From the NCBI GenBank assembly GCA_009780675.1, contig WQZP01000012.1:3769-67768 (forward strand): 64,000 bases of DNA. The letters run 5' to 3'. This DNA is from Spirochaetaceae bacterium (GTDB lineage: Bacteria > Spirochaetota > Spirochaetia > CADAEX01). How positions within the stretch are numbered: position 1 is the stretch's first letter; the number at the start of each line of letters is the position of its first letter. Below the pieces are notes generated by a model. That model did no database searches, had not been told where the DNA came from, and saw only the letters and a list, made by a program, of their open reading frames with translations. Position numbers and translations under genes: made by a program. Below, piece after piece: positions 5,776 through 35,393 of the stretch.

Positions 5776-6150
5776 TCATCCAATCTCTACAACTTCACCT
5801 ATGGAAAACAACAAATTATATAATTCAATATTTTCATCAAAATCAACTAAATCAAATTCATTTTCTAAAATATTGTTTAATTTTGAGTATGTTCTTATGT
5901 AATTTTTTGGAGATAAACCCATAACTCCAATGTCAATATCTGATAATTCGGTATACTTTCCTGTTGCTAATGAACCAAAAAGGAAAATTGAAGTGCAGCC
6001 TTCTTCCTTTAAACACATAGTAGCCTTTTCAATATCCTGTCGATATTTTTCAGGAATTTCTGGTAAAGTCATAATAAATAATATATACTTATTTGTGATG
6101 GTGTCAAGTGCATTTTTCATTAATTTGGAGATTTTGGATAATTCTAGCAA
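5776..6150 (-). CDS. minimal nucleotidyltransferase (MNT), pol-beta superfamily; antitoxin-like
   Basis: IFLFGSLATGKYTELSDIDIGV contains the GS..G...D.D nucleotidyltransferase motif. Confidence 0.65.
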   Translation of the reverse strand: MLELSKISKLMKNALDTITNKYILFIMTLPEIPEKYRQDIEKATMCLKEEGCTSIFLFGSLATGKYTELSDIDIGVMGLSPKNYIRTYSKLNNILENEFDLVDFDENIELYNLLFSIGEVVEIG

Positions 6151-6387
6151 AATTTACAAAATTTTTCAGCTCAATTGCATATAACGTATTATATGCGAAC
6201 TTCGTATAATCTTCATCCGAAGATATAACGCGAAATAAAGGTTCGTGTTATATCAAAAACAAATGTAAAGGGAAAATCACACAATGTAAAGAATCTTGCA
6301 AACTTGGGCTCTGCATAATTTTTCATTTTTTTATCTTACAGCAGACCACGCGGGCTTTTGCCTACGTTACTGAGTAAGAAAAATAAA

Positions 6388-6696
6388 TTAACCTGGCGGA
6401 TTTTTAAATTTTACAGCAGGCCGTTGCAAAAATTCTAACTTGAGGGTCATATTCATGGCAGAAGCTAGCCGCTTTAATGTCTGCAAGGTGGGGTTGCCAT
6501 CGCCTGCTTCCAGTTTGCTTATATCACTTTGGGCTATACCTGTGCGTTCGGAAAGCTGCTTCTGGGTAAGTCCTGCATTTTTACGAGCATCTATAATGGC
6601 TTGGACAATCGCAAACTCTGGCTCTAATGCATCCCATTCAGCGCGAATTTCAGGGTTCTTCAATTGTTCATCAAGAAATTTTTTCCACTCGCTCAT
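6388..6696 (-). CDS. HTH XRE-family antitoxin (HigA-like)
   Basis: GLTQKQLSERTGIAQSDISKLEAG is a helix-turn-helix. Overlaps the upstream toxin gene by 4 nt. Confidence 0.7.
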   Translation of the reverse strand: MSEWKKFLDEQLKNPEIRAEWDALEPEFAIVQAIIDARKNAGLTQKQLSERTGIAQSDISKLEAGDGNPTLQTLKRLASAMNMTLKLEFLQRPAVKFKNPPG

Positions 6697-8513: not shown

Positions 8514-9517
8514 TTTAATGTGTAAGTTCCTGCTCTACGCCCCTGATAGTTATAGAATTCAACAAATCCTTGGTCGAAAGCATTATTTGCTATCTTGATG
8601 TTTGCTCCAATAATAATGCTGGTTAGTCGATTCCTACTAAATGCATTATCCTCGATAATGCTCACGCTATCTGGAATAATAACACTGGTTAGTTGATTCC
8701 AACTAAATGCACCCTCTTCGATAATAGTCACGCTATCAGAAATAATAACGCTGGTTAATTGGTTCCAAAAAAATGCATTCCTCCCAATAGTAGTCACGCT
8801 GTCAGGTATAACAACACTGCTCAGGTAATTCCAACTGAATGCATTCTCCCCGATAACAGTCACACTGTCGGGTATAACAACACTGGTCAATCGGTTAACA
8901 GAAAATGCACTATCCATGATAGTAGTCACACTGTCGGATATAATAACGCTGCTCAGGTAATTCCAACTGAATGCATTCTTCCCGATAACAGTCACGCTGT
9001 CGGGTATAACAACGCTGGTCAATCGGTTAACAAAAAATGCACTATCCCTGATAATAGTCACGCTGTCAGGTATAACAACGCTGCTCAGGTAATTCCAACT
9101 GAATGCATCCTTCCCGATAGTAGTCACGTTGTTGGGAATAACAACGCTGGTCAATCGATTACGAAGAAATGCATACCTCCCGATAATAGTCACGTTGTCG
9201 GGTATAACAACGCTGGTCAGTCGATTATCAGCAAATGCACTATCCCTGATAATAGTCACGCTATCGGGTATAACAACACTGGTCAGCCGATTACCAAAAA
9301 ATGCATCCTTCCCGATTACAGTAACAGGCAGATTTTGTATTTGGGGAGGAATTCGCACATCTGTATTTCTTCCATTATATTTGGTAACTTCTATTGCAGT
9401 ACCACCCTCAATAACCCGCACAGTAAAATTTTCCTCAGGCTCAAATTGTGATTGGGTATATGCGAAAGATGCTGTAAACAGTATCAAAATAATTCCAAAA
9501 ATAATTTTTCTGTTCAT
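8486..9517 (-). CDS. secreted leucine-rich-repeat protein; paralog of 7407-8315
   Basis: Near-identical N-terminal 90 aa and C-terminal 40 aa to the neighbour, with about 11 repeat units. The upstream region (9560-9607) also duplicates 8362-8408. Confidence 0.8.
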   Translation of the reverse strand: MNRKIIFGIILILFTASFAYTQSQFEPEENFTVRVIEGGTAIEVTKYNGRNTDVRIPPQIQNLPVTVIGKDAFFGNRLTSVVIPDSVTIIRDSAFADNRLTSVVIPDNVTIIGRYAFLRNRLTSVVIPNNVTTIGKDAFSWNYLSSVVIPDSVTIIRDSAFFVNRLTSVVIPDSVTVIGKNAFSWNYLSSVIISDSVTTIMDSAFSVNRLTSVVIPDSVTVIGENAFSWNYLSSVVIPDSVTTIGRNAFFWNQLTSVIISDSVTIIEEGAFSWNQLTSVIIPDSVSIIEDNAFSRNRLTSIIIGANIKIANNAFDQGFVEFYNYQGRRAGTYTLNGSWSVQFK

Positions 9518-9611: not shown

Positions 9612-10658
9612 TTATCTTTTTGGCAGCAGTTGCGAAAGGTAAGTGGATAAAATATCTTTGTATTCTTTTTCTATTTTTTGCTCTGCTGATACAAACACAC
9701 GGTTTTCTGCTCCTGCAACTGTGGGATGCCCTTCTCGAATATTAAAAGTGAATGGCAATAATACCTCTCGCGTGACAGTATCAGTAAGGTTTGCGCTTAA
9801 TTCCATAAGAATAAATCTGTGCGGATTATCAGGAAAATCAACAGGCGAAAGCCATACATTTACTCGAAGCGCATAACGCGAATTACTTCCTCCACTTCTA
9901 AATCCAAAATCAGTAAAAGTTTTCGCGAAAGCATCCTGAATTCTTCCGGCTCTATCGTTGTTAACAACTATATTGACCGGAATGGCTCTGGTTATGTTTC
10001 GCGCTTCCAGCCGGTATTCGTCGCCTCTTCTAACCCCTGCGGGTGTTCTTGCGCCCAGCATATTCAATAAATTAGCATAAGTGATATTTATATCTGCCAC
10101 TGTTGCGGCGAATTGAAATCTGGAAAAACCTTCCAGAGAATTTCTTTCAGCCTGACTCATGGTAGTAAGATTTCTAATCATTTCCAGATTGGCTAATATC
10201 ATATCTGTGTACAAGCGAATGGTTTTTGCCCTTTCCATGACTGCAACAGCATAAAAAATATTGTGCCGTGTGTCCTGCCATACATCTTTTATTTCCGCTC
10301 CAATAAGATTATCCATCGAAACTGATGTTCTTATTGTATTTTGCATGGCGATATTATCGACCCAGCCTATGGTAATGCCATCTCTTACAGCTTCAAGATA
10401 TGTATTTACTATTATTTGATCTGCCTGTATGGATTGACCAAAAAAAGCAGCCAGATTTGCAATAGCGTTTCTTTCTGCCATTTCGCGGTCTGTAGCATGG
10501 CCCACTGCAGCAATGAATTGCGATCTGCTGTAAACAGAATCAACAGAATCGACCCATGCAGGTTTTCCGCTGTTGCCAGGCGAACTTGCGCAGGAGAAAA
10601 ACAACAGCATCAGCGGAAAAAAGAAAAAATTATTCGCTAACTTGAAGAGGTCTTTCAT
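9612..10658 (-). CDS. lipoprotein with an N-terminal LPP20-like domain
   Basis: Probable start is the ATG at 10658 (MKDLFKLANNFFFFPLMLLFFSCASS lipobox). KPAWVDSVDSVYSRSQFIAAVGHATDREMAERNAIANLAAFFGQSI fits the LPP20/FlgP-type fold. Confidence 0.5.
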   Translation of the reverse strand: MKDLFKLANNFFFFPLMLLFFSCASSPGNSGKPAWVDSVDSVYSRSQFIAAVGHATDREMAERNAIANLAAFFGQSIQADQIIVNTYLEAVRDGITIGWVDNIAMQNTIRTSVSMDNLIGAEIKDVWQDTRHNIFYAVAVMERAKTIRLYTDMILANLEMIRNLTTMSQAERNSLEGFSRFQFAATVADINITYANLLNMLGARTPAGVRRGDEYRLEARNITRAIPVNIVVNNDRAGRIQDAFAKTFTDFGFRSGGSNSRYALRVNVWLSPVDFPDNPHRFILMELSANLTDTVTREVLLPFTFNIREGHPTVAGAENRVFVSAEQKIEKEYKDILSTYLSQLLPKR

Positions 10659-11214
10659 TTCTTGCAAGTTGGGCATCAAGCATCTGTAAAGCTTGTTGCG
10701 CTTTGAACTGGGCAAAAGCAGCTTCCTGATTATTAAGAATACTTGCTACTTCCCTTCTGGCATCAGCTTTTCTGTACTCAACAAGAAACCACCAGTATCC
10801 ATCCGGAGCTTCCCATCGCCTGATGGGGTGTGCGCCAGTAAGATTTATACTGCTAACCTGGCGGCTTACATCTTCCTGCAAGGAAGCGTTAGCTTGATTG
10901 TTTACATTGCCTGCATCAAGATTGTAGTCTGTGAACATAGCCTGAACTAAAGTATCAAGCTGACGCGTAATAGCGGTTCTTCCCCTGGCTTCCGCTGTTG
11001 TCATGGACATGGAACGGGAAGATTGTTTTGCGGTTCCAATACCCCAAATAACATCATTTGGCGGCAAATCATTTAACCATTCCGGCGTGTTAGCCATTCT
11101 GCCTGTGGCAGGGGCAGACCCGCACCCTGCGACAAAAACTACTATGAATACCAGTATTATTGCCGTTACTCCAATTGTAAACAAATTTTTCTGTTTCATT
11201 TTTTTCTCCTTCAA
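10630..11214 (-). CDS. LPP20-like lipoprotein
   Basis: Lipobox VFVAGCGS. PEWLNDLPPNDVIWGIGTAKQSSRSMSMTTAEARGRTAITRQLDTLV matches the LPP20 domain pattern. Confidence 0.55.
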   Translation of the reverse strand: MKEKKMKQKNLFTIGVTAIILVFIVVFVAGCGSAPATGRMANTPEWLNDLPPNDVIWGIGTAKQSSRSMSMTTAEARGRTAITRQLDTLVQAMFTDYNLDAGNVNNQANASLQEDVSRQVSSINLTGAHPIRRWEAPDGYWWFLVEYRKADARREVASILNNQEAAFAQFKAQQALQMLDAQLARNERPLQVSE

Positions 11215-24501: not shown

Positions 24502-25059
24502 ATGAAAAAACTTTTTTTATTTACGATTATACTTTTTTGCATGGGAATAAACATGGAATTGCAAGCGCAAAATCAGAATCAAAGAATTCTAATTGCCTAT
24601 TTTTCATGGAGCGGAAATACCCGTATTGTTGCGCAGCACATTCATCTTGCTGTTGGCGGCGATATTTTTGAAATCAAACCAGCAAAGCCTTATCCAACTA
24701 ACTATCAAGCTACATTGAATATTGCCAGACAGGAACTACAAACAGATGATCGTCCTGAACTTGAATCAAATGTAAGTAATATGGCTGAATATGATATAAT
24801 TTTTTTGGGCTTTCCAAATTGGTTAAATACAATACCAATGATCATATACACTTTTCTTGAATCTCATGATTTTAGGGGAAAAACAATAATTCCGTTTTGC
24901 ACACACGGTAGCGGCGGACTGGGCAGAAGTATTGTCGATATACGAAGATTGACTCCAGGCGCAACTCTCTTGGAACCTTTGGGGATTAGAGGCGCAGATG
25001 TAAGGAATTCCCAAAACGATGTAATCGCATGGCTTCGCCGTCTTAATATGGTGAGATAA
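24502..25059 (+). CDS. flavodoxin-family protein with an N-terminal signal peptide
   Basis: RILIAYFSWSGNTRIVAQ FMN-binding loop. TIIPFCTHGSGG. Signal peptide MKKLFLFTIILFCMGINMELQAQ. Confidence 0.65.
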   Translation: MKKLFLFTIILFCMGINMELQAQNQNQRILIAYFSWSGNTRIVAQHIHLAVGGDIFEIKPAKPYPTNYQATLNIARQELQTDDRPELESNVSNMAEYDIIFLGFPNWLNTIPMIIYTFLESHDFRGKTIIPFCTHGSGGLGRSIVDIRRLTPGATLLEPLGIRGADVRNSQNDVIAWLRRLNMVR

Positions 25060-25087: not shown

Positions 25088-25723
25088 TTAATTAAGAGAA
25101 AAATTGACTGCGATCCTGAGGACATCTGCTGTTGGGCGTCCCATGTAGCTTGCAGGCGCAAATCTTGCTCTTCTTACACATCTTATTGCTGCTCTATCCA
25201 AAATATCATAATTGCTTGAAGTAATAATTTCTGTTTTGAAAACTCTTCCGGATGAGTCTATGCTTACATCGATCAGCACTGTTCCTTCCAGCCCTCTCCT
25301 TACAGCATTAGCAGGGTAAACAGGTATAAGTTCCGACAACAAATAGGCTTTCCTGAAAAATCCTGTTCCATAACTCCCCTGCTGTATTGATTCTATATTG
25401 CTTTCAAAATCTCCCTGATATTTTTTTTCATTGGCATTGTTGTCGCTGTTGCTATCGTTATTTGCGCTGCTTTCAATACTTTCGCGAATATTTTTTTCAA
25501 CGCTGCTCTCTGCCCGAAACACACTTTGCGACAAACTACCTGGCGCAGCAGCGCTGAAATTTTGGTTAAGTGAAACTCTTATAACCCCTTCCTGACTGCC
25601 TTGTGCCTGCAAAGAAGTTTTTCCAGCAGGCGATAACACAAAAACAGACAGAAGGGTAATAAGAAATACATGAAACAATACAGAAAATAAATAATATTTT
25701 CCGCTAGTAAGTAAATGCCACAC
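25088..25723 (-). CDS. tonB: energy transducer TonB (C-terminal domain)
   Basis: YPANAVRRGLEGTVLIDVSIDSSGRV..RFAPA is a TonB C-terminal domain. N-terminal TM. Confidence 0.7.
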   Translation of the reverse strand: MWHLLTSGKYYLFSVLFHVFLITLLSVFVLSPAGKTSLQAQGSQEGVIRVSLNQNFSAAAPGSLSQSVFRAESSVEKNIRESIESSANNDSNSDNNANEKKYQGDFESNIESIQQGSYGTGFFRKAYLLSELIPVYPANAVRRGLEGTVLIDVSIDSSGRVFKTEIITSSNYDILDRAAIRCVRRARFAPASYMGRPTADVLRIAVNFSLN

Positions 25724-27725
25724 CTAACATGACCTCTCTTCCATTGCCTGGATAATAACTGGCCCAATGCACAAGCTGGGCATACTCTTTATCAGTAATA
25801 TTTTTTACTTTTCCAAAAACAGTAAGAAAACTGCGGCCCACAGGCAAGGTTAAATTTGCCCCTATATTGCATAAAAGATATCCATCAATTTTATCAAAAT
25901 TGTTTGATGTATCTCCTCCACCATAAAAAGAAGCTGAGTAGCTTATTTCGCTATACAACCTCAACATATTAAAAAATGAAAATTCAGGGATAACTGCAAA
26001 TCTGTGAACTGGGACAATAGGAATTTGGTTCCCTTTATCCTCCCCTTCTCTGAATTCTGCGATTGTAAAATTATAGGTCCCTGTTAAAGAAAAATATTCT
26101 ACAGGAGAAAAAGAAACAAAAGACTCTATTCCATAGCGGATTGTCTTATCAAGATTTTCATTTGAAAAAGTTGCATTATTAAATGAAATTTCATCATTCA
26201 TCAAAAGCAGAAACAAGTTTACCCCTAAAGCAACAAGACTTCCAAATCTATATTCAACTCCCAGATCAAAAGAGTGACCACGCTCCGGATTAAGGTCTTT
26301 AATAAAACCATCATTGCCTATTCCGTGATACATTATTAATTCATCTGTAAAAGGAAATCTAAAAACCCTGTCGTAGCGCAAATATACTTTGCCGTTATCA
26401 GAAAACATAAAATTAAAGCCAGTTCCAAAGTTAAATACTAAATAGTTTTTATTGTCATTTACATCAGGAAGATCGCCACTATAGAAAACATGGTCATATC
26501 TTCCTGACAGAGAAAACAAAAGCCTCTCTGTAACAGGCAATTCTCCTCTTGAAAAAAACGCATAATTTGTTTTAGTGATTTTACCGCTGTAATATCTATC
26601 TTCACGATTTGCATCGTTATATCTTTTTACACTTAGATCATCCATTATAAAATCAAACCCTGCTGTTATTTTAAGTTCTCTTAAAAGCACAGGAAATTCT
26701 CCTGTAAAAGATACTCCTGCTGCTATTGAGTCAATATTGGTATTTGTGAAAGCTTGCATACCCCAAAATGATATATCTGCTTTTGTATCTCTTGAGTTAT
26801 ACCCTGCTGTTAAAAAAAGAAAATGATTTTCTGTAAACTCCCATCTACCTTGCGCCTGAATAAATAAAGATTCTATTTCTGCCTTATCATATTTATTGCT
26901 TGCCTGCCTGGGATTATTTTTAAATTCTTCTTCTGTAAGACCACCGGGCATTTCATACATTTGATTCCCGGATGAAAGAAAAAGAGAAGCAGAGCCTCTT
27001 TCTGCAAATGATGTTGAAATATTTGCGCTAAAATTAGTATTTTCTGTCCCTGTTCTGTCTCGCCACCCATCAGTCCTGCTATCTACAGCAGATACAGAAA
27101 CCAATAAAACATCGCTCCCTGCAGATGCGGTAATCCTCTTTTCAAGAAAAGAGTTGCTTCCCCCCATAACTTCTGTACTTAATGAAACCCCTTCACGCGG
27201 TTTTGCAGGAATAATATTTATTACAGCAGCAACAGCATAATCTCCATATAACGAGCTTGCTCCGCCCCTTACAACTTCTATTTTTTCAATTCCACCTGCG
27301 CCAGGTATTGCAAGCCAATTAATCCCAGCCATATCAGGATTATTCAACTTTATTCCATCAAAAAGGATAAGGATCCTCCCCTGCCCCCCTTCTGTAAAGC
27401 CCCTTGCAGAAGGTTGAGCAAGAGCTGGTAAGCCGTTAAACGACCTCATGTCTATTCCAGCAAACAAAGCAAGCGCTTCCGGAACAGTTCTGTTCCTGAG
27501 TTGTTCCGCTGTTATGGTTATAACAGAAGCAGGGATCTGGTTATCTGGCTGAGGGCTTCGCGTAGCAGTTACTGAAACCATAATATCAGCTTCTCTTGCT
27601 GAATCCGCTGCAGGCTGCGAATCACTGGTAGCGACGCTAAATTCCTCGCTTGGGATTGCAGCCTCTTCGGCCCAACCTGCTGCTACCACAAGCAGACACA
27701 TTAAAACTGTAAGAAAAATTTTCAT
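25704..27725 (-). CDS. btuB: TonB-dependent outer-membrane receptor (BtuB-like; riboswitch-controlled)
   Basis: Start is the ATG at 27725 (AAGGAG ribosome-binding site, signal peptide MKIFLTVLMCLLVVAAGWA). Plug domain with TonB box DIMVSVTATR. Long beta-barrel with a terminal aromatic residue. Confidence 0.8.
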   Translation of the reverse strand: MKIFLTVLMCLLVVAAGWAEEAAIPSEEFSVATSDSQPAADSAREADIMVSVTATRSPQPDNQIPASVITITAEQLRNRTVPEALALFAGIDMRSFNGLPALAQPSARGFTEGGQGRILILFDGIKLNNPDMAGINWLAIPGAGGIEKIEVVRGGASSLYGDYAVAAVINIIPAKPREGVSLSTEVMGGSNSFLEKRITASAGSDVLLVSVSAVDSRTDGWRDRTGTENTNFSANISTSFAERGSASLFLSSGNQMYEMPGGLTEEEFKNNPRQASNKYDKAEIESLFIQAQGRWEFTENHFLFLTAGYNSRDTKADISFWGMQAFTNTNIDSIAAGVSFTGEFPVLLRELKITAGFDFIMDDLSVKRYNDANREDRYYSGKITKTNYAFFSRGELPVTERLLFSLSGRYDHVFYSGDLPDVNDNKNYLVFNFGTGFNFMFSDNGKVYLRYDRVFRFPFTDELIMYHGIGNDGFIKDLNPERGHSFDLGVEYRFGSLVALGVNLFLLLMNDEISFNNATFSNENLDKTIRYGIESFVSFSPVEYFSLTGTYNFTIAEFREGEDKGNQIPIVPVHRFAVIPEFSFFNMLRLYSEISYSASFYGGGDTSNNFDKIDGYLLCNIGANLTLPVGRSFLTVFGKVKNITDKEYAQLVHWASYYPGNGREVMLGVAFTY

Positions 27726-27854
27726 AAGAAACTCCTTTTTCTTCTGAAAAAGAAGCCAGAGATAGGCAAGTAATCTAACAAGACAAAAAAATAATAGCCT
27801 ATTCCAACTCAATCCTCGAAGTTGTTATCACCCCAACTAAAGGGGTCTTACTGG

Positions 27855-28040
27855 TTTAAGTATTCTGACTTATGGCTCTGGTATAATTGAATTATACCGC
27901 CGTACCTTTTCCTTCCCAGTTACTCCATTAAAAAACAGAATCACCAGTGGTTGCCAATACATAGTCTCTTTGTATAGGCATAAAAGGTTTGTGGCCAATT
28001 ACAGCAGCGGGACTGCGGAGGAATTTCACCTCTCTTCCAT
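27855..28040 (-). ncRNA. cobalamin (B12) riboswitch
   Basis: Minus strand reads GGTGAAATTCCTCCGCAGTCCCGCTGCTGTAA...CCACTGGTG...ACTGGGAAGG, containing the cobalamin-riboswitch core and B12 box. It is followed by alternative CAACT/AGTTG hairpins and a T-run before the btuB ribosome-binding site. Confidence 0.7.
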
Positions 28041-28151
28041 AAAATCCAGCATCTACACTGTATTATTTTTTTTCTAAATGTTCAAGATTAATAAAAATTG
28101 AGCAGAAGAAACAATATATCGATTTAAGTTACCTTTTTCGTTATCGGAGTG

Positions 28152-28188
28152 TTGACATATAAAAGCATAGTATTATACTTAAAGCATG
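28152..28188 (+). promoter_or_regulatory. sigma70-like promoter (TTGACA-16-TATACT) placing the transcription start at or near the ATG; possible leaderless mRNA
   Basis: TTGACA at 28152-28157 and TATACT at 28174-28179. ATG at 28186 with no Shine-Dalgarno sequence. Confidence 0.35.
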
Positions 28189-29415
28189 ATTATACGAATG
28201 GATACCCTTATCAAGGCTATTGCAACGGCTCTTGACGCAGTAGAACATGAACTTTTAGGGGCCAGCACAAACCACGGCAAACGAATTGCTGTATTGTGCG
28301 CTAGAATGGGAAAGGTTCTGGGGAAAAGCCCGGAAGAGATTGCCAGCATGGCGAATTGCGCGCTGCTTCATGACAACGCGCTTACCGAATTCATTCTTGC
28401 CGAAAAGACAGGCGGACAACACGACCCGGCAATGAAAAAACACTGTGAATATGGCCAACGAAATGTGGATACCCTGGCCTTCAAAACCAACGTGACTGAC
28501 TTGATTCTTTACCACCATGAAAGGGCAGATGGCAAAGGGCCATTTGGAATAAAGGCAGGAGAAGGCCCTGTGGAGGCTGAGCTCATAGCAATAGCTGATT
28601 CAATTGATGTGGGGCATCATTTACAAAGGTTGACTCCTGACAAACTCCCCTTGATCCGGCACACAATCGCCGCAGAGTCCGGAAAAAGATACAGCAAAAC
28701 CGCGGCGGAAGCTATGCTGGAAATCCTTGATTGGCCAACGATTCTTTCACTTAGGGACAACGTCATCCGGGAAACTGCCGAAGCTGCTTTTATTCCCTGG
28801 ATTGCCGATGTGGACGATGAGGCTCTTTTGAACCTGGTAGGCTTTATAACGAGGATCATTGACTATAAATCGGTCTTTACCCAAAAGCATTCAAATCAGA
28901 TTGCCAACAAGGCCTGGTTCATGGGCGGATATTACAAGTATGAAAATGCTGAACGGACACAACTATACCTGGCCGCAGCTCTCCACGACATAGGCAAACT
29001 GGAAGTCCCAACAGCGATTCTGGAAAAACCCGGTAAACTCACGGATGAAGAATTCGTCATCATCAAAGGGCATGCAAGCCAAACTTGGGAACTCCTTAAA
29101 GATATTGATGGGTTCGAAACTGTTTGTAAATGGGCATCCAATCATCATGAAAAACAAAACGGCTTGGGTTATCCCTTTGGGAAAAAGGCCAGCGAACTGG
29201 ATTTTAATTCCAGGCTTATGGCCTGCATTGATATTTACCAGGCTGTAAGCGAGGAACGGCCATACCATCCTGCACGAAACCATAAAGACACCATGCAGAT
29301 ATTATACCAAATCGCAGATACCGGCGATATAGACAAAAAAATTGTTGATGACATATCTGTTGCCCTGTCATCCTTTGATGGCATGGATCTACCAAACCCT
29401 GATCTGTCAAAGTGA
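28186..29415 (+). CDS. tandem HD-GYP domain c-di-GMP phosphodiesterase-like protein
   Basis: C-terminal domain is canonical (ALHDIGKLEVP ... HHEKQNGLGYPFG). N-terminal domain is degenerate (LLHDNALTEF ... YHHERADGKGPFG). Confidence 0.75.
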   Translation: MIIRMDTLIKAIATALDAVEHELLGASTNHGKRIAVLCARMGKVLGKSPEEIASMANCALLHDNALTEFILAEKTGGQHDPAMKKHCEYGQRNVDTLAFKTNVTDLILYHHERADGKGPFGIKAGEGPVEAELIAIADSIDVGHHLQRLTPDKLPLIRHTIAAESGKRYSKTAAEAMLEILDWPTILSLRDNVIRETAEAAFIPWIADVDDEALLNLVGFITRIIDYKSVFTQKHSNQIANKAWFMGGYYKYENAERTQLYLAAALHDIGKLEVPTAILEKPGKLTDEEFVIIKGHASQTWELLKDIDGFETVCKWASNHHEKQNGLGYPFGKKASELDFNSRLMACIDIYQAVSEERPYHPARNHKDTMQILYQIADTGDIDKKIVDDISVALSSFDGMDLPNPDLSK

Positions 29416-29525
29416 ACCTGGCTGGAATATCTCATGCTGTAGATACAGATAGCATCATCACATTAATCCGAGAGCCTTGCCTTCTTAGATATAACACAGC
29501 CGTTGACATATAACACAGTCTCTAC

Positions 29526-30566
29526 TTGACTCTAAAGCTCCGTATGTATGTAATAGAGATAGTGAATAAAAAACAAAAATATAGAGGTTTTTTTCTTCTT
29601 GTTATACTATCTTTTCTTCTCTTTATATTAAATTTGCTTACAGGTTCTGCAGGTATCCCATTTTTAAGCGAAAATATATTTCATACTGATGGCGCAAGAA
29701 CCATAATATGGAAAACAATAATTTTTGAAATAAGATTCCCCAGAGCTGTTTCTGCTTTTCTGGCAGGTGGGGCTCTTGCGCTTGCCGGACTTCTGCTTCA
29801 AACATTTTTCAGAAACCCTTTAGCTGGTCCTGATATTCTGGGAATAGCATCAGGCGCAGGTTTTGGAGCAGCAGTTGTAATTTTAGCCATCCCTTTTTTA
29901 GGCATAGCAGGAATAATATCAACAGCATCTGCTGCTGCAGTTGGAGCTGCTGCAGTAACACTCTTTCTTGTTATGATTGTTAAAAAATCAGGAAGCATAA
30001 CACTTACCCTTATTGCTGGTTTGCTTACAGGTTATTTTATAGCTTCGATCACAGGGATAATGGTAAGGTTTTCTGAAAATCAGGCAGTCAGATCTTTTAT
30101 AAATTGGTCTGCCGGAAGTTTTAAAAATATCTCTCCAGATACTCTCCCTTTTCTTGCTTTAGTAGTTGCTTCTTCGTTTTTAGTTGCTGTTATTATTTCC
30201 AGACATTGCGACCTTTATCTACTTGGAGATGATTATGCATCAAGCATGGGCTTAAATCTTAAATACTTTAGATATTCGGTTATAATCATAACTTCCATAT
30301 TAACAGGAGTAGTAACAGCTTTTTGCGGTCCTATTACTTTTATAGGGATCGCAGCTCCCCATTTTTGCAGATTTTTTCTTAAAACAGATAAACACAATAT
30401 TTTAATACCAGGAACTTTTTTCGCAGGGACAACACTCGCGCTTGCAGCAGATATAATATCATCTCTTCCGGGACATGGTATAACTCTTCCATTAAATTCA
30501 GTAACTGCGATAATAGGAACCCCAATAGTAATAAAAGTGCTATTAAAAGGATATTATGATAAATAA
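29526..30566 (+). CDS. btuC: FecCD/BtuC-family ABC permease
   Basis: About 9 TM segments. FecCD-type signature region GPITFIGIAAPH. Confidence 0.8.
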   Translation: MTLKLRMYVIEIVNKKQKYRGFFLLVILSFLLFILNLLTGSAGIPFLSENIFHTDGARTIIWKTIIFEIRFPRAVSAFLAGGALALAGLLLQTFFRNPLAGPDILGIASGAGFGAAVVILAIPFLGIAGIISTASAAAVGAAAVTLFLVMIVKKSGSITLTLIAGLLTGYFIASITGIMVRFSENQAVRSFINWSAGSFKNISPDTLPFLALVVASSFLVAVIISRHCDLYLLGDDYASSMGLNLKYFRYSVIIITSILTGVVTAFCGPITFIGIAAPHFCRFFLKTDKHNILIPGTFFAGTTLALAADIISSLPGHGITLPLNSVTAIIGTPIVIKVLLKGYYDK

Positions 30567-31332
30567 CGAAAAAATTCTTGAGGCTAAAAACCTTACAACA
30601 GGATATAAAACTAAAAAAATTACAAATGATTTTTCTTTTTCAATAAATACAAATTCAATAACTGTAATAATTGGGCCGAATGGGAGCGGAAAAACAACCC
30701 TGCTTAAAACAATATCAGGAATCATAAAACCAATTTCCGGAGATATTTTTTATTTACTAAACAATACTAATATAGAAGATATGGATGCAATAACATTTGC
30801 AAAAGCAAGATCTGTAGTGCTATCCAAACCTCCGGAAACAGGGATGCTTACTGTTTTTGAAGTTATATCTTTGGGAAGATTTCCCTATACAGGCTGGAAA
30901 GGGAAATTTTCAGACCAGGATTATTTTGAAACTGAAAGAGCTCTGGAAGAAATAGGGATAACTGCTCTTTCAAACAGAATTTTTAGAACATTAAGCGATG
31001 GGGAAAAACAAAAAGTTATGATAGCCAGAGCTCTTGCCCAAAACACCCCACTTATTTTTTTCGATGAACCATCTGCGTTTCTTGACCTCCCGTCAAAAAT
31101 TGAGTTATCAAAACTTATTGCAGATATTTCAAAAAATAAAACAATTATAAGTACAACACATGATATTGATTTCGCGCTTAATTACGCCAATGAGTTGTGG
31201 GTTATTGACAGAGATGGAACTACTCATACAGGAGCGCCAGAAAAACTTTATGGAACCATCGAGAATATTTTTAAAATCATGCCACACAAATTTTTGGAAC
31301 AAAAAATAAAGCTACAGCATACGCTTTGCTAA
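30556..31332 (+). CDS. btuD: ABC transporter ATP-binding protein (BtuD/FepC-like)
   Basis: Walker A GPNGSGKTT. ABC signature LSDGEKQKV. Walker B IFFDEP. Confidence 0.8.
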   Translation: MINNEKILEAKNLTTGYKTKKITNDFSFSINTNSITVIIGPNGSGKTTLLKTISGIIKPISGDIFYLLNNTNIEDMDAITFAKARSVVLSKPPETGMLTVFEVISLGRFPYTGWKGKFSDQDYFETERALEEIGITALSNRIFRTLSDGEKQKVMIARALAQNTPLIFFDEPSAFLDLPSKIELSKLIADISKNKTIISTTHDIDFALNYANELWVIDRDGTTHTGAPEKLYGTIENIFKIMPHKFLEQKIKLQHTLC

Positions 31333-31368
31333 TCTAAAACAAAGAGCCGAGGTGAGGAGAGCCTAAAG

Positions 31369-34245
31369 ATGAAAAGATTTACCATACTGTTGCTGCTTAT
31401 ATTTGTAACTGTTATTGCCGAAGCGCAGCTTTTTCCCCCTTTTCAATCATTCCGCGTTATCAAAACAGAAAAATTTGATATTATCTTCCCTAAAGAATCA
31501 GAAGCATCTGCCCGCCTTTTGGCATCCTATGCAGACAATGTTTATGAAGAGTTAAGTACGCTTTTTGGCATTAGTGTTCCTGGCCGCATTCCTGTAACTT
31601 TTGCTCCACATACTGATATGTTTAATGGTTATTACAATCCCATATCACGTCCTCATATTGTGCTTTTTGATACAGCTATGAATATAGAGTGGACCACTTT
31701 TGAAGATAATCTTAAAGGGCTTTTTATTCATGAGTTAACCCATGCAATTACTTTAAACACAAGAAGCCCTTTTTACCGCTTTCTGCACAGATTTTTTGGC
31801 AATTGGGCAACTCCCGCATTTTGGACCGCGCCGGCATTTATGCTAGAGGGCGCTCCAATCAGCATGGAAAGCCTTGGGGGTTTTGGCAGAGCAAATGATC
31901 CATTTGCCAGGCATTATCTAAGGCAGGCTCTCCACGAAGGGAAGTTTCATACACCCTTTCAGGCTTCGGGTGTATACGATTTTCCAGGGCAACGATATTT
32001 GTTTTACGAGTACGGAGGTTTTTTTTCCGCATGGCTACAGCAACAATTCGGTATGGAAAAATATGCTGAACTTTGGCAAGCCATGGGTAAGAGCGGACAA
32101 TTTTCCATTTTCGCATACCGGTCAGGGTTTTATAATATTTTCAGAAGAGTGTACAACATGGATTTTATCTATGCCTGGAATACTTTCAGGGATTCACTTG
32201 CCCTGGATAACATTGAAGAAAATCAGAATGAAATCCTTCCAGGACAATACCGTTTCTTTTCCGAAAACAGAAATTCTTTTCCTGCTCTGGCAGCCAGTAA
32301 AAATGAAGTCTTTATTCTTGACAGAACAGGAAAAATCCATGTTTATAATTCACAGACAGGAAATACCCGCACATTTAACTCCGGGCTTTTTTTAGTTTAT
32401 GACCTTGATGTTTCTGCCTGCGGTACAACTCTTCTCGTGTCCGGGTATCAGGCTATAACAGGCGATCGGTTCAGAGCAGTTGTCATAGAACACAGGACAG
32501 ATTCCGGGCGCAGAACAGGCAGGGTTTTTCATGGGCTTTACAGAGCCAGATATTTCAGAGACGGCGTTATTGGAATTCGTACCGAACTCCACAACAATAA
32601 AATTGTATACGAAGATTTTAATGGTAACAGAGAAATTCTTTTCCAGGGAAATCAGAGATTGATGTTTTCAGGCCCGCAGGCTGTGGATAATGATAGGATT
32701 GCATTTATAGCAGCCCGTAATGGCGCGCGGGAACTTTTGCTTTACAATTATGTTTCTGGAGAACTTTTTCGCATTGAAAATTCCACAGACAATAATGACT
32801 ATTGGCGATTTATGCGAAACTTAAATGTCTCGGAAGGAAGGCTTCTTTTTAGCCATAATGCGAACGACCGCATGTACAAATTTGCTTCTATTGATCTGGA
32901 AAATATGCAGGCAATTTTTAGCACCCGTGATTTTTCCGGCGGTGTTTTTAATCCAGTTTCTGTTAATGGAAATATTTATTACCGCGCAAACTTTTTTTCC
33001 GGAGACAACATTTTACGTTTTCCGGAAACTATAACATCTCTTTCAGGAGAGCAAACCAATATAAATTTCGCAGCGCCTGCTGAAGATTACAGATTGGCTG
33101 CGCAGAGGAGGGGCAACACACAGGAAGCGCTGACTGTACAACCACATGATAACAACCTTCCTCCCTTTGAGTCCCGGCCATATTTTACCATCAGGTATAT
33201 GAATCCCTTTGATTTTTGGCTACCATTACCATTAATTAGAGTGGATACTGATTTTAATTTCTCTTTGGATGGCGGGGGCATTCTTTCAGTAATAATGGAT
33301 CCTACAGACAGGCATTTAATAATTGCCATGGCGTATGCAGATACAAAATATCAAATGGCAAATGTAGAACTTTTTACATGGCAAAATACCGTTGCTGGAT
33401 TCCCTATAGCCCTGGAATTTTCAGATACAATATTAACAAATTCCAGAGATGATCTTTATCGAAATACCAGAGTAAGTTTAATAGCCAGTTTTAGCCAAAT
33501 TCCAGGGCGTTGGCGATATGGATTCTCTTTTGGCGGAGGATATTACCGGATTGCCGAAGATGACGGCAGAGCAAGCGCTTATGATTGGGAAAAAACAGAA
33601 AGCGGCTTTTTATATTCTGCAACTCTTTCATTTTCAACCCTGACACGCCGTCAGCATGAATTGTTTGGAACTGGTATGTCTCTTGGGTTCAGGGGGATCA
33701 GTATTGTAGAAGATTTTCACCCCCGCCTTGAGGGCAGATTTCGGGCAAGCACAGAAACAAGATTCCCCTTGGGCCTTGTTCTTTACGGCGTTTATGATGA
33801 ACGCGGAATGAATCTTCATGGATCATCACGAACTTATGGAGGTTCATTGTTTCGTGATTCTGCATCAGTGGAATATACAATCCATAGAGGACTCAATAAC
33901 CTTTTATGGATTGCCGGAGCAGAATTGTCGTTAGGGCTTTTTTCTTTTGAAATTCAAAGAAATCTTTCCCATGTTTATTTTAACAGATTTTTCTGCACCC
34001 TTGCAGTAAGAAATGTTTTGTATAACAGTGACGGACATTTCCTGGCAGAAGGAATTGAAATGGGGGATTTTCACTTGGCGCAGTCGCTGGTGCTTAGTCT
34101 TGGATTAATATCCTCGGTTATTCCACTTAAACAAGTACCGCTTTTTCTGGAACCCAGAATTTGGGGTGCCTGGAAATTCTCCAACACCATTACCGGAAAA
34201 GGCGATATCTGGCAAATTGGGGCAGGCTTTAATTTTCAGTATTAA
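31369..34245 (+). CDS. large secreted protein: HExxH metalloprotease-like N-terminal region, beta-propeller-like middle, beta-barrel-like C-terminus
   Basis: Signal peptide. FIHELTHAITLN (HExxH motif). Repeated TolB-like blades. C-terminus ...GAGFNFQY. Confidence 0.4.
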   Translation: MKRFTILLLLIFVTVIAEAQLFPPFQSFRVIKTEKFDIIFPKESEASARLLASYADNVYEELSTLFGISVPGRIPVTFAPHTDMFNGYYNPISRPHIVLFDTAMNIEWTTFEDNLKGLFIHELTHAITLNTRSPFYRFLHRFFGNWATPAFWTAPAFMLEGAPISMESLGGFGRANDPFARHYLRQALHEGKFHTPFQASGVYDFPGQRYLFYEYGGFFSAWLQQQFGMEKYAELWQAMGKSGQFSIFAYRSGFYNIFRRVYNMDFIYAWNTFRDSLALDNIEENQNEILPGQYRFFSENRNSFPALAASKNEVFILDRTGKIHVYNSQTGNTRTFNSGLFLVYDLDVSACGTTLLVSGYQAITGDRFRAVVIEHRTDSGRRTGRVFHGLYRARYFRDGVIGIRTELHNNKIVYEDFNGNREILFQGNQRLMFSGPQAVDNDRIAFIAARNGARELLLYNYVSGELFRIENSTDNNDYWRFMRNLNVSEGRLLFSHNANDRMYKFASIDLENMQAIFSTRDFSGGVFNPVSVNGNIYYRANFFSGDNILRFPETITSLSGEQTNINFAAPAEDYRLAAQRRGNTQEALTVQPHDNNLPPFESRPYFTIRYMNPFDFWLPLPLIRVDTDFNFSLDGGGILSVIMDPTDRHLIIAMAYADTKYQMANVELFTWQNTVAGFPIALEFSDTILTNSRDDLYRNTRVSLIASFSQIPGRWRYGFSFGGGYYRIAEDDGRASAYDWEKTESGFLYSATLSFSTLTRRQHELFGTGMSLGFRGISIVEDFHPRLEGRFRASTETRFPLGLVLYGVYDERGMNLHGSSRTYGGSLFRDSASVEYTIHRGLNNLLWIAGAELSLGLFSFEIQRNLSHVYFNRFFCTLAVRNVLYNSDGHFLAEGIEMGDFHLAQSLVLSLGLISSVIPLKQVPLFLEPRIWGAWKFSNTITGKGDIWQIGAGFNFQY

Positions 34246-35393
34246 GGAAGGACAGGTATATGCCTGAAAAAATATTTTTTTCTGCCAGTAGAAAAGTGGT
34301 CATGATGGATAATATTTATAAGGTCAGACAATATCCTGTCCGGATGCGCAGTGCCTTCATCCCAAAAAGGATTCCCATCTCCTCTATCCCTAAGGTCATT
34401 ATTATAGACCTGCCTGTTTTGGAAAGCCCTAAAAAGGGAATATCTTCGGTCTCTGTTTACAATATCTCCAAGAACCCTTATCCCCGAAGTATTCAAGAGC
34501 CAAATATCTGCGTTACCAGCCGCAACATAAACTTGCTTGAAGTCAAAAAACAGGGAGCCCTGCCTTCTTACGCTTGCCCACGGATAGGCTGCCCCGGCAT
34601 GCTCCAGCATAATGGCAAAGTAACTATTGCCGGAAGGGGTAACCCAGCTATCTCCATGCATCATATTTAAAAACACAACAGGTCTCTTGCCATTTAAAGG
34701 AACTTTTTCTTTTAGCGCGTTATACCTCAAAACCGTATCATTTAAAATACGCTTCCCCTCATACTCCATATCAAGAAAAAGAGAAAGAAAAACAAGCCAC
34801 TCCAACCTTCCCAAAGGGTGATTCTCAAGCCACCCCGCAGTTACTGCAACAGGAAACCCATGCCGCAATAATAACCCGGTAGAGTCATAATCTCCGCCTG
34901 TCCATGGAGTAATTACAAGCTCCGGGCTTATGGAAAAAATCATTTCAATATCAATATCGCGCCCCTCGCCCACTTGCGCCACAGAGCCTTTTCCTACACG
35001 CTCCTTAACTTCCATATTAGAAGTGTTTCTGGAAAAATCTATTGCTTTTAACTTATCAAGAGAATCCAGAGATTCAAGAAAAAATATATTTTCCGAAGAA
35101 AGAGATATTATTCTTTGCACAGGGATTTTTACATACTGAATTATCCTGTTTCTATTAGCCCTTCTACTATCGTTTATAGAAGGTTTTTCATCACGGTAAA
35201 GATACCAGATATATTCAAAACCACCCACATTTACATAAACTTCTATGTGATTTTCATAATTTCTATATGAAAAATTTTGCGCATAAAGGTTTTTAGTAGT
35301 TGTTCTTGGACTGATATTGCCTTGTTTGCAACCTATACACAAAAAAAGCAAAAATATACTAACAATTGTTAAAATTTTTAATTTTTTATCCAT
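34242..35393 (-). CDS. periplasmic binding lipoprotein (BtuF/class III substrate-binding-like)
   Basis: Lipobox LCIGC. Peripla_BP_2-like core GLLLRHGFPVAVTAGWLENHP. Convergent with the btuCD operon. Confidence 0.6.
   Translation of the reverse strand: MDKKLKILTIVSIFLLFLCIGCKQGNISPRTTTKNLYAQNFSYRNYENHIEVYVNVGGFEYIWYLYRDEKPSINDSRRANRNRIIQYVKIPVQRIISLSSENIFFLESLDSLDKLKAIDFSRNTSNMEVKERVGKGSVAQVGEGRDIDIEMIFSISPELVITPWTGGDYDSTGLLLRHGFPVAVTAGWLENHPLGRLEWLVFLSLFLDMEYEGKRILNDTVLRYNALKEKVPLNGKRPVVFLNMMHGDSWVTPSGNSYFAIMLEHAGAAYPWASVRRQGSLFFDFKQVYVAAGNADIWLLNTSGIRVLGDIVNRDRRYSLFRAFQNRQVYNNDLRDRGDGNPFWDEGTAHPDRILSDLINIIHHDHFSTGRKKYFFRHIPVLP

Follow-up and report, generated by a model that had tools for sequence, protein, structure and literature searches.

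What is a gene for a large secreted protein doing inside a vitamin B12 (cobalamin) uptake locus? The gene in question (31369-34245, + strand) encodes a 958-residue protein and lies in a 64,000-nt window of a Spirochaetaceae bacterium genome (assembly GCA_009780675.1, contig WQZP01000012.1, positions 3,769-67,768); all positions given here are those of the window, the whole stretch of DNA that we analyzed. The surrounding locus, at 25088-35393, also encodes a TonB-dependent receptor, the parts of an ATP-binding cassette (ABC) transporter, and an HD-GYP protein. An earlier reading of the sequence, made without database searches (the sequence-only reading), suggested that the 958-residue protein either assists B12 uptake as an accessory surface factor that captures or processes corrinoids, or is a protease unrelated to B12. 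An open reading frame (ORF) check recovered all ORFs of the locus at the coordinates which that reading had assigned to them. Our data favor the second of its two suggestions: we consider it probable that this is an ordinary B12 locus with passengers, and that the 958-residue protein is an outer-membrane zinc protease found throughout the Spirochaetota and not a B12 factor.

Predicted architecture of the 958-residue protein

We modeled the 958-residue protein with AlphaFold2 from a 36-sequence alignment, and obtained a model with a predicted local distance difference test (pLDDT) score of 85.5 and a predicted template-modeling score (pTM) of 0.84. In order, the model contains a signal peptide, an alpha/beta domain (residues 28-280), a beta-propeller of about 26 strands (290-570), a linker of low confidence (579-594), and a 16-strand barrel (616-957). 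The sequence-only reading had picked out an HExxH motif, TolB-like propeller blades, and a beta-barrel-like C-terminus, and this description agrees well with both the structure prediction and the Foldseek searches that we ran with it. Scans of the protein whole and in thirds, and of 51 diverse homologues, found no Pfam or NCBIfam family for the N-terminal domain or the barrel.

The N-terminal metallopeptidase-like domain (residues ~28-280; 31450-32208, + strand) contains the sequence HELTH at residues 121-125 (31729-31743, + strand). In the model, a beta-sheet precedes the active-site helix; the HExxH motif lies on helix 114-129, and E160 and E167 lie on helix 156-167. The domain thereby shows the gluzincin arrangement of an HExxH motif on one helix and a conserved glutamate on the following helix. 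Nine residues do not vary across 104 homologues (21-47% identity), namely F36, F119, H121, E122, H125, E160, E167, R174, and G524, and conservation over the whole protein is strongest at the peptidase site. We predict that the N-terminal domain is a zinc peptidase domain of the gluzincin type (HExxH...E) with its catalytic residues intact. No defined peptidase family was reached, with sub-threshold matches at the motif only (YgjP-like, 0.21; WLM, 0.077; M48, 0.17), and a sequence profile search of the PDB returned propellers and, at the HExxH motif, a WLM match of E = 0.79. Pallilysin (Tp0751), also an HExxH protein, is small and unrelated.

The TolB/YVTN-like propeller (residues ~290-570; 32236-33078, + strand) is recognizable by sequence as well as by fold. 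A profile of the family matches the PDB entries for Lp49 (2.2e-7), a YVTN S-layer protein (1.3e-5), tricorn protease (5e-4), and TolB (1e-3), and a Foldseek search with the whole model returned propellers including a putative TolB (2ojh).

Because WD40 and TolB propellers saturated the whole-model Foldseek list, we modeled the C-terminal barrel (residues 616-958; 33214-34242, + strand) alone. The resulting model has 16 strands and a pLDDT of 95.7. In a Foldseek search of the PDB with this model, BamA, Sam50, or TamA structures took all of the first 48 places (E = 1.4e-5 to 1.3e-3, TMq 0.40-0.53, 9-12% identity), and no 16-strand porin is among these 48. The longest barrel loop, of 30 residues, falls between strands 11 and 12, the position of Omp85 loop 6. 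Conserved residues in the barrel include E-I-Q on strand 12 and Y-x-N-R on strand 13, while near-invariance is confined to P619, G637, P645, and G769. The last residues of the protein are ...GFNFQY; among 36 close homologues, 26 have F or Y in the C-terminal position, as is typical of a beta-signal. Neither a POTRA domain nor a helical plug is predicted in the models.

Distribution of the family and its relation to B12 genes

A homology search with the 958-residue protein gave 378 matches, all of them unnamed or "hypothetical"; those with an organism name came from Treponema or Spirochaetes metagenome-assembled genomes (MAGs). Searching 1.84 billion representative sequences with a profile, we found 3838 matches at E<=1e-3, of which 582 reach E<=1e-30. 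Every homologue with a named organism belongs to the Spirochaetota, and is called "hypothetical protein" or, in Spirochaeta lutea, "TolB family protein". The three-domain architecture can be assigned with confidence to a large family, of hundreds to thousands of 50%-identity clusters, that has carried no annotation beyond "hypothetical protein" and that Pfam and NCBIfam do not detect. A literature search for spirochaete proteins with HExxH, propeller, and barrel features found no paper describing the family, and a tblastn search of the PLSDB plasmids for an annotated relative gave no match.

We examined the gene neighborhoods of homologues in six metagenome contigs and in 80 loci from species-representative genomes, including Breznakiella homolactica, Gracilinema caldarium, Rectinemataceae, Brevinematales, and Salinispira. 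We took the proteins of the window as tblastn queries: 0 of 88 loci encoded a FecCD permease, a binding protein, a receptor, or a TonB in the 6-8 kb around the homologue, and three loci had unrelated ABC ATPases (27-31% identity) nearby. An Rfam scan of ten diverse homologue loci detected no cobalamin riboswitch at any of them. Neighbors vary among the six metagenome contigs, and those that do recur are clade-specific housekeeping genes: an EPSP_synthase-family (MurA-like) gene at 10 loci, EamA at 9, and SecD/SecF at 7. In the reverse comparison, two B12 loci orthologous to that of the window, L090 and L091 (described below), contain neither a homologue of the 958-residue protein nor the HD-GYP gene. 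A B12 accessory role for the protein is therefore unsupported, because the protein is conserved outside B12 loci and is missing from orthologous B12 loci. The more general lesson is a negative one: gene adjacency misled, and what was taken for an accessory factor is a passenger, carried by a conserved locus at one of its junctions prone to insertion.

Several features of individual family members came up in this survey. The clade with MurA-like neighbors includes Breznakiella homolactica and Gracilinema caldarium (L021, L026, L032, L036, L037, L039, L040, L048, L050, and L082), and SecD/SecF neighbors occur in a Treponemataceae clade (a subset of L059-L084). Some MAGs carry two paralogues of the family on separate contigs (L053/L066, L070/L079, and L074/L081, from Kf353_bin19 and two Brevinematales). 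One protein of 1403 residues from a Spirochaetaceae MAG (P0150, MDR0551690.1) has an extra N-terminal VWA domain, BatA/BatB-like, ahead of the peptidase, propeller, and barrel.

Relation to Omp85 proteins and predicted role

A survey of the Omp85/TpsB superfamily split it into ten subfamilies, one of them "WD40-like" (Heinz & Lithgow, 2014, Front Microbiol 5:370; PMC4104836). Members of that subfamily match both PF01103 and PF07676 (PD40) (PMC4104836, Table S2), and their best Phyre2 hits are BamA/TamA for the barrel (4k3b, 4c00), TolB for the propeller (2w8b, 2ivz), and either M1 aminopeptidases (1z5h, 4kxd, 3qnf, 4fgm) or M9 collagenases (4ar1, 4ar9) for the peptidase (PMC4104836, Table S3). 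The subfamily was still listed as uncharacterized in 2024 (PMC11116518). The 958-residue protein has the same domain order and fold classes (peptidase-like domain, TolB-like propeller, and 16-strand barrel), and neither group has a POTRA domain. The two groups differ in that PF01103 and PD40 define the WD40-like subfamily, whereas the spirochaetal members lack a listed PF01103 match and rarely match PD40. The link between them is thus only one of predicted fold and architecture. In these terms, and not by the defining Pfam models, the 958-residue protein appears to be a divergent spirochaetal variant of the WD40-like Omp85 kind, from a branch that seems too divergent for the Pfam models.

Other Omp85 proteins offer partial parallels. 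Like BamA, Sam50, and TamA, the 958-residue protein is predicted to have 16 strands, its longest loop between strands 11 and 12, and a C-terminal aromatic beta-signal; unlike them, it has no POTRA domains, and the lid-lock motifs are not evident. PlpD, a patatin-like Omp85 protein of type Vd, likewise has an enzyme domain N-terminal to an Omp85-type barrel, but the enzyme is a patatin lipase, one POTRA domain is present, and both the propeller and the zinc site are lacking. The N-terminal enzyme domain of PlpD was shown experimentally to be periplasmic and not secreted (PMC11116518).

These comparisons suggest how the protein might work. Its signal peptide would carry it to the periplasm, where the C-terminal aromatic beta-signal would direct the barrel into the membrane in a BAM-dependent way. 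Both N-terminal domains, peptidase and propeller, would then remain on the periplasmic face, tethered to the barrel, because a barrel with an even number of strands has the start of its strand 1 in the periplasm and because PlpD provides a precedent for a periplasmic N-terminal domain. The propeller would select or gate polypeptide substrates for the zinc site; propellers serve as substrate filters in tricorn and in prolyl-oligopeptidase-type enzymes. The role would be a housekeeping one, in processing or quality control of envelope proteins. We predict a housekeeping envelope protease whose gene came to lie in the B12 locus by chance, and it would be part of the ABC transcript simply through its placement behind the ABC genes. 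Spirochaetes have few outer-membrane beta-barrel proteins, and these are eagerly looked for; one that occurs across the phylum and keeps its zinc-protease site invariant would be a concrete target for the study of non-POTRA Omp85 function.

A bolder version of this proposal, which we put forward as a tentative possibility that is less likely to be right than wrong, is that the family is an unrecognized and highly divergent Omp85 branch in which POTRA domains have been replaced by an active gluzincin and a TolB-like propeller, making a protease built into the outer membrane that would serve the processing or quality control of envelope proteins in most of the phylum. Such a branch was probably overlooked by Pfam-based surveys, because no PF01103 signal is detected in it. 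More speculatively still, in the lineage of the window the protein might have been recruited into the btuCD transcript to act on corrinoid carrier proteins.

Several observations weigh against the assignment to an Omp85-like protease independent of B12. The template-modeling (TM) scores of the barrel are moderate (~0.5) and root-mean-square deviations from its matches are 8-11 A. The Omp85 loop-6 motif VRG[F/Y] is not evident, nor is FxDxG seen on strand 13. The list of 25 Pfam families obtained at E<=10 with the 51 diverse members does not include PF01103, and PF07676 matches 2 of the 51, both above E 0.01. Aligning the family profile with E. coli BamA and PepN by hhalign found nothing in either, a weak test since each template was a single sequence. 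Finally, the gene starts 36 nt behind the btuD-like gene with no terminator between them, and there may be a local, lineage-specific link of the protein to the transporter.

That last point bears on the main suggestion of the sequence-only reading, in which the protein would serve BtuCD by capturing or processing corrinoids, as an analogue of Bacteroides BtuG/BtuH. One such task might be to free corrinoids from carrier proteins. The proposal has some appeal: besides its closeness to the ABC ATPase gene, the 958-residue protein gene has its own Shine-Dalgarno-like sequence and abuts the binding-protein gene, and BtuG is likewise a beta-propeller, so that in this one genome a propeller-bearing envelope protein is encoded beside B12 transport genes as in Bacteroides. 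The resemblance goes little further, as the 958-residue protein is not a lipoprotein, has an invariant zinc-peptidase site and a transmembrane barrel, and its association with B12 genes is not conserved at any of the 88 homologue loci. Conservation peaks at the zinc-peptidase site and not at a ligand-binding propeller face, no Pfam family matches, the host operon has no riboswitch, and the orthologous B12 loci do without the gene. The protein turns out to be a predicted protease that is conserved outside B12 loci, the outcome that the sequence-only reading had named as speaking against its proposal, and we regard a corrinoid-related function as very improbable.

Two further explanations accept the protease-propeller-barrel architecture and assign it a different task. 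The barrel could act as a type-V-like exporter of its own peptidase and propeller, placing them outside the cell, where they would break down proteins of the environment or of the host (termite gut) in the service of nutrition or adhesion. An N-terminal "passenger" followed by a C-terminal barrel fits this idea, as does the flexible, low-confidence linker at residues 579-594, and the option has been raised for an Omp85-"metalloprotease" subfamily by analogy with PlpD (PMC4104836). We judge it unlikely, given that PlpD, the export precedent, keeps its N-terminal domain in the periplasm, that a folded propeller of ~280 residues is a demanding cargo, and that neither a POTRA domain nor a helical plug is predicted. 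Alternatively, the barrel could be the working part, an Omp85 paralogue in outer-membrane protein assembly with the propeller as a BamB-like scaffold and the HExxH domain accessory or inactive. This is what was proposed for the WD40-like Omp85 proteins, which were likened to a BamA-BamB fusion (PMC4104836), and BamA and Sam50 are the best fold matches of the barrel. It is the less likely of these two, since the strictest conservation lies in the peptidase site (H121, E122, H125, E160, and E167) and reaches near-invariance at just four barrel residues, and since Omp85 sequence motifs and PF01103 are not detected. A housekeeping protease facing the periplasm therefore remains the reading that we prefer.

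The B12 uptake locus and the HD-GYP gene

The locus that hosts the 958-residue protein gene is a real and ordinary spirochaete corrinoid-uptake locus. A single Rfam family passes its gathering score anywhere in the 64-kb window: the Cobalamin riboswitch RF00174, at 27860-28038 on the - strand (46.1 bits against a threshold of 31.5, E = 2.2e-8), which the sequence-only reading had placed at 27855-28040. Downstream on the same strand lie the gene for a 702-residue TonB-dependent receptor (25704-27812; Plug and TonB_dep_Rec_b-barrel) and, overlapping it by 20 nt, a tonB-like gene encoding 211 residues (25088-25723; TonB_C PF03544, E = 5e-20; TIGR01352, E = 2.2e-16), which bears out the riboswitch-controlled receptor-TonB operon described from the sequence. 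By Pfam the receptor is a generic Plug and barrel receptor, and it misses the BtuB equivalog cut-offs (TIGR01779, 85.7 bits against 599.7; NF007926, 71 against 836); because of this, it is the riboswitch that points to B12 as its substrate. We saw no exbBD genes adjoining the window's tonB. A Flavodoxin_4 gene (24502-25059, + strand) converges on tonB, and at the matching position L090 has ExbD and ExbB.

The ABC side of the locus comprises a FecCD-family permease gene (btuC-like; 29526-30566, + strand; PF01032, E = 2.8e-67), an ABC ATPase gene (btuD-like; 30556-31332, + strand; ABC_tran PF00005, E = 3.5e-28), and a gene for a Peripla_BP_2 binding lipoprotein with an LCIGC lipobox (btuF-like; 34242-35393, - strand; PF01497, E = 2e-12), convergent with the 958-residue protein gene. 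Together these three have the composition of the BtuC/BtuD/BtuF class: a FecCD permease, an ABC ATPase, and a cluster-A binding protein. The names btuB, btuC, btuD, and btuF given in the sequence-only reading are names by inference, as no protein reaches the NCBIfam Btu equivalog cut-offs: the best NCBIfam match of the permease is BtuC (NF003001), at 182 bits where the cut-off is 334, that of the ATPase is FecE, and the binding lipoprotein has no NCBIfam match. A phmmer search of the PDB with the binding protein returned only spurious matches to RecA-fusion linkers. Conserved synteny with a riboswitch-controlled receptor in three genomes points to corrinoid specificity for the transporter.

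Compared with canonical btuB-riboswitch and btuCD-btuF systems, the locus shares a Cobalamin riboswitch 5' of a TonB-dependent receptor and the set of FecCD permease, ABC ATPase, and Peripla_BP_2 protein. It differs in having a dedicated TonB co-transcribed with the receptor, and in an ABC side without a riboswitch: searches to E<=10 found no cobalamin riboswitch 5' of either the permease gene or the binding-protein gene. The cobalamin riboswitch would thus govern the receptor and its TonB, with the riboswitch-free FecCD, ABC, and binding-lipoprotein side adjoining, and the tandem HD-GYP gene and the 958-residue protein gene would be lineage-specific passengers at the two junctions of this core.

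We searched for related B12 loci with the binding lipoprotein and fetched three, L089, L090, and L091, in which this protein is 67%, 71%, and 50% identical to that of the window. In L090, proteins are 62-83% identical to those of the window (permease 83%, ATPase 76%, receptor 72%, TonB 62%), and the core and the flanking amidohydrolase and CDP-alcohol transferase genes are common to both. In L091, from a 3.9-Mb genome, proteins are 50-63% identical (receptor 51%), and the genes run contiguously as CDP-alcohol transferase, binding protein, ABC ATPase, FecCD, Cobalamin riboswitch, receptor, and TonB. The riboswitch is in the matching position 5' of the receptor in both (45.7 bits in L090 and 59.9 in L091), and the TonB ortholog follows the receptor in both. 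By sequence comparison, then, the core gene order is kept in other Breznakiellaceae and Treponema-like genomes. In L090, a PemK toxin-antitoxin pair (5963-6546) lies between the ATPase and the binding protein and an ORF6N gene (8770-9297) between FecCD and the riboswitch. These are the same two junctions that are interrupted in the window, here holding other cargo, and they look insertion-prone.

At the first junction of the window, the ATPase gene and the 958-residue protein gene are separated by 36 nt, with a Shine-Dalgarno-like sequence, GAGGTGAGGAG, upstream of the latter. We found no terminator-like hairpin between the two genes (z = -0.36), and the 958-residue protein gene is for this reason probably co-transcribed with the ABC genes in this genome. 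At its other end, its stop codon and that of the binding-lipoprotein gene overlap in a palindromic TTAA (34242-34245), which leaves no space for a terminator between these convergent genes.

At the second junction, between the riboswitch operon and the btuCD-like genes, lies the tandem HD-GYP gene (409 residues; 28186-29415, + strand), with two HD_5 stretches (E = 7.5e-40) as the sequence-only reading had described it. The N-terminal copy carries HHERADGKGPFG, a degenerate motif with GPF, and the C-terminal copy carries HHEKQNGLGYPFG, of the HHExxDGxGYP type; an HD_5 domain together with a motif of this type marks the protein as a member of the HD-GYP family. A sigma-70-like promoter consensus (28152-28179, + strand; TTGACA-16-TATACT, an 11/12 match by consensus only) stops 7 nt 5' of the HD-GYP ATG. 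No Shine-Dalgarno sequence is present before this ATG, and a further in-frame ATG occurs at codon 5. Given the promoter-like site 7 nt away and the lack of a Shine-Dalgarno sequence, a leaderless transcript, as raised in the sequence-only reading, is plausible.

HD-GYP genes also turned up near homologues of the 958-residue protein elsewhere. In L009, an HD-GYP start (8773-8880) lies 4.7 kb downstream of the homologue and runs to the contig end, with its first 36 residues 78% identical to those of the window's HD-GYP protein. In L063, a complete tandem HD_5 protein (9832-11064; 34% identity) is encoded 1.3 kb downstream of the homologue. We considered a conserved association of the two genes and set it aside: with HD-GYP genes being common, a proximity at 3 of 89 loci is probably due to chance.

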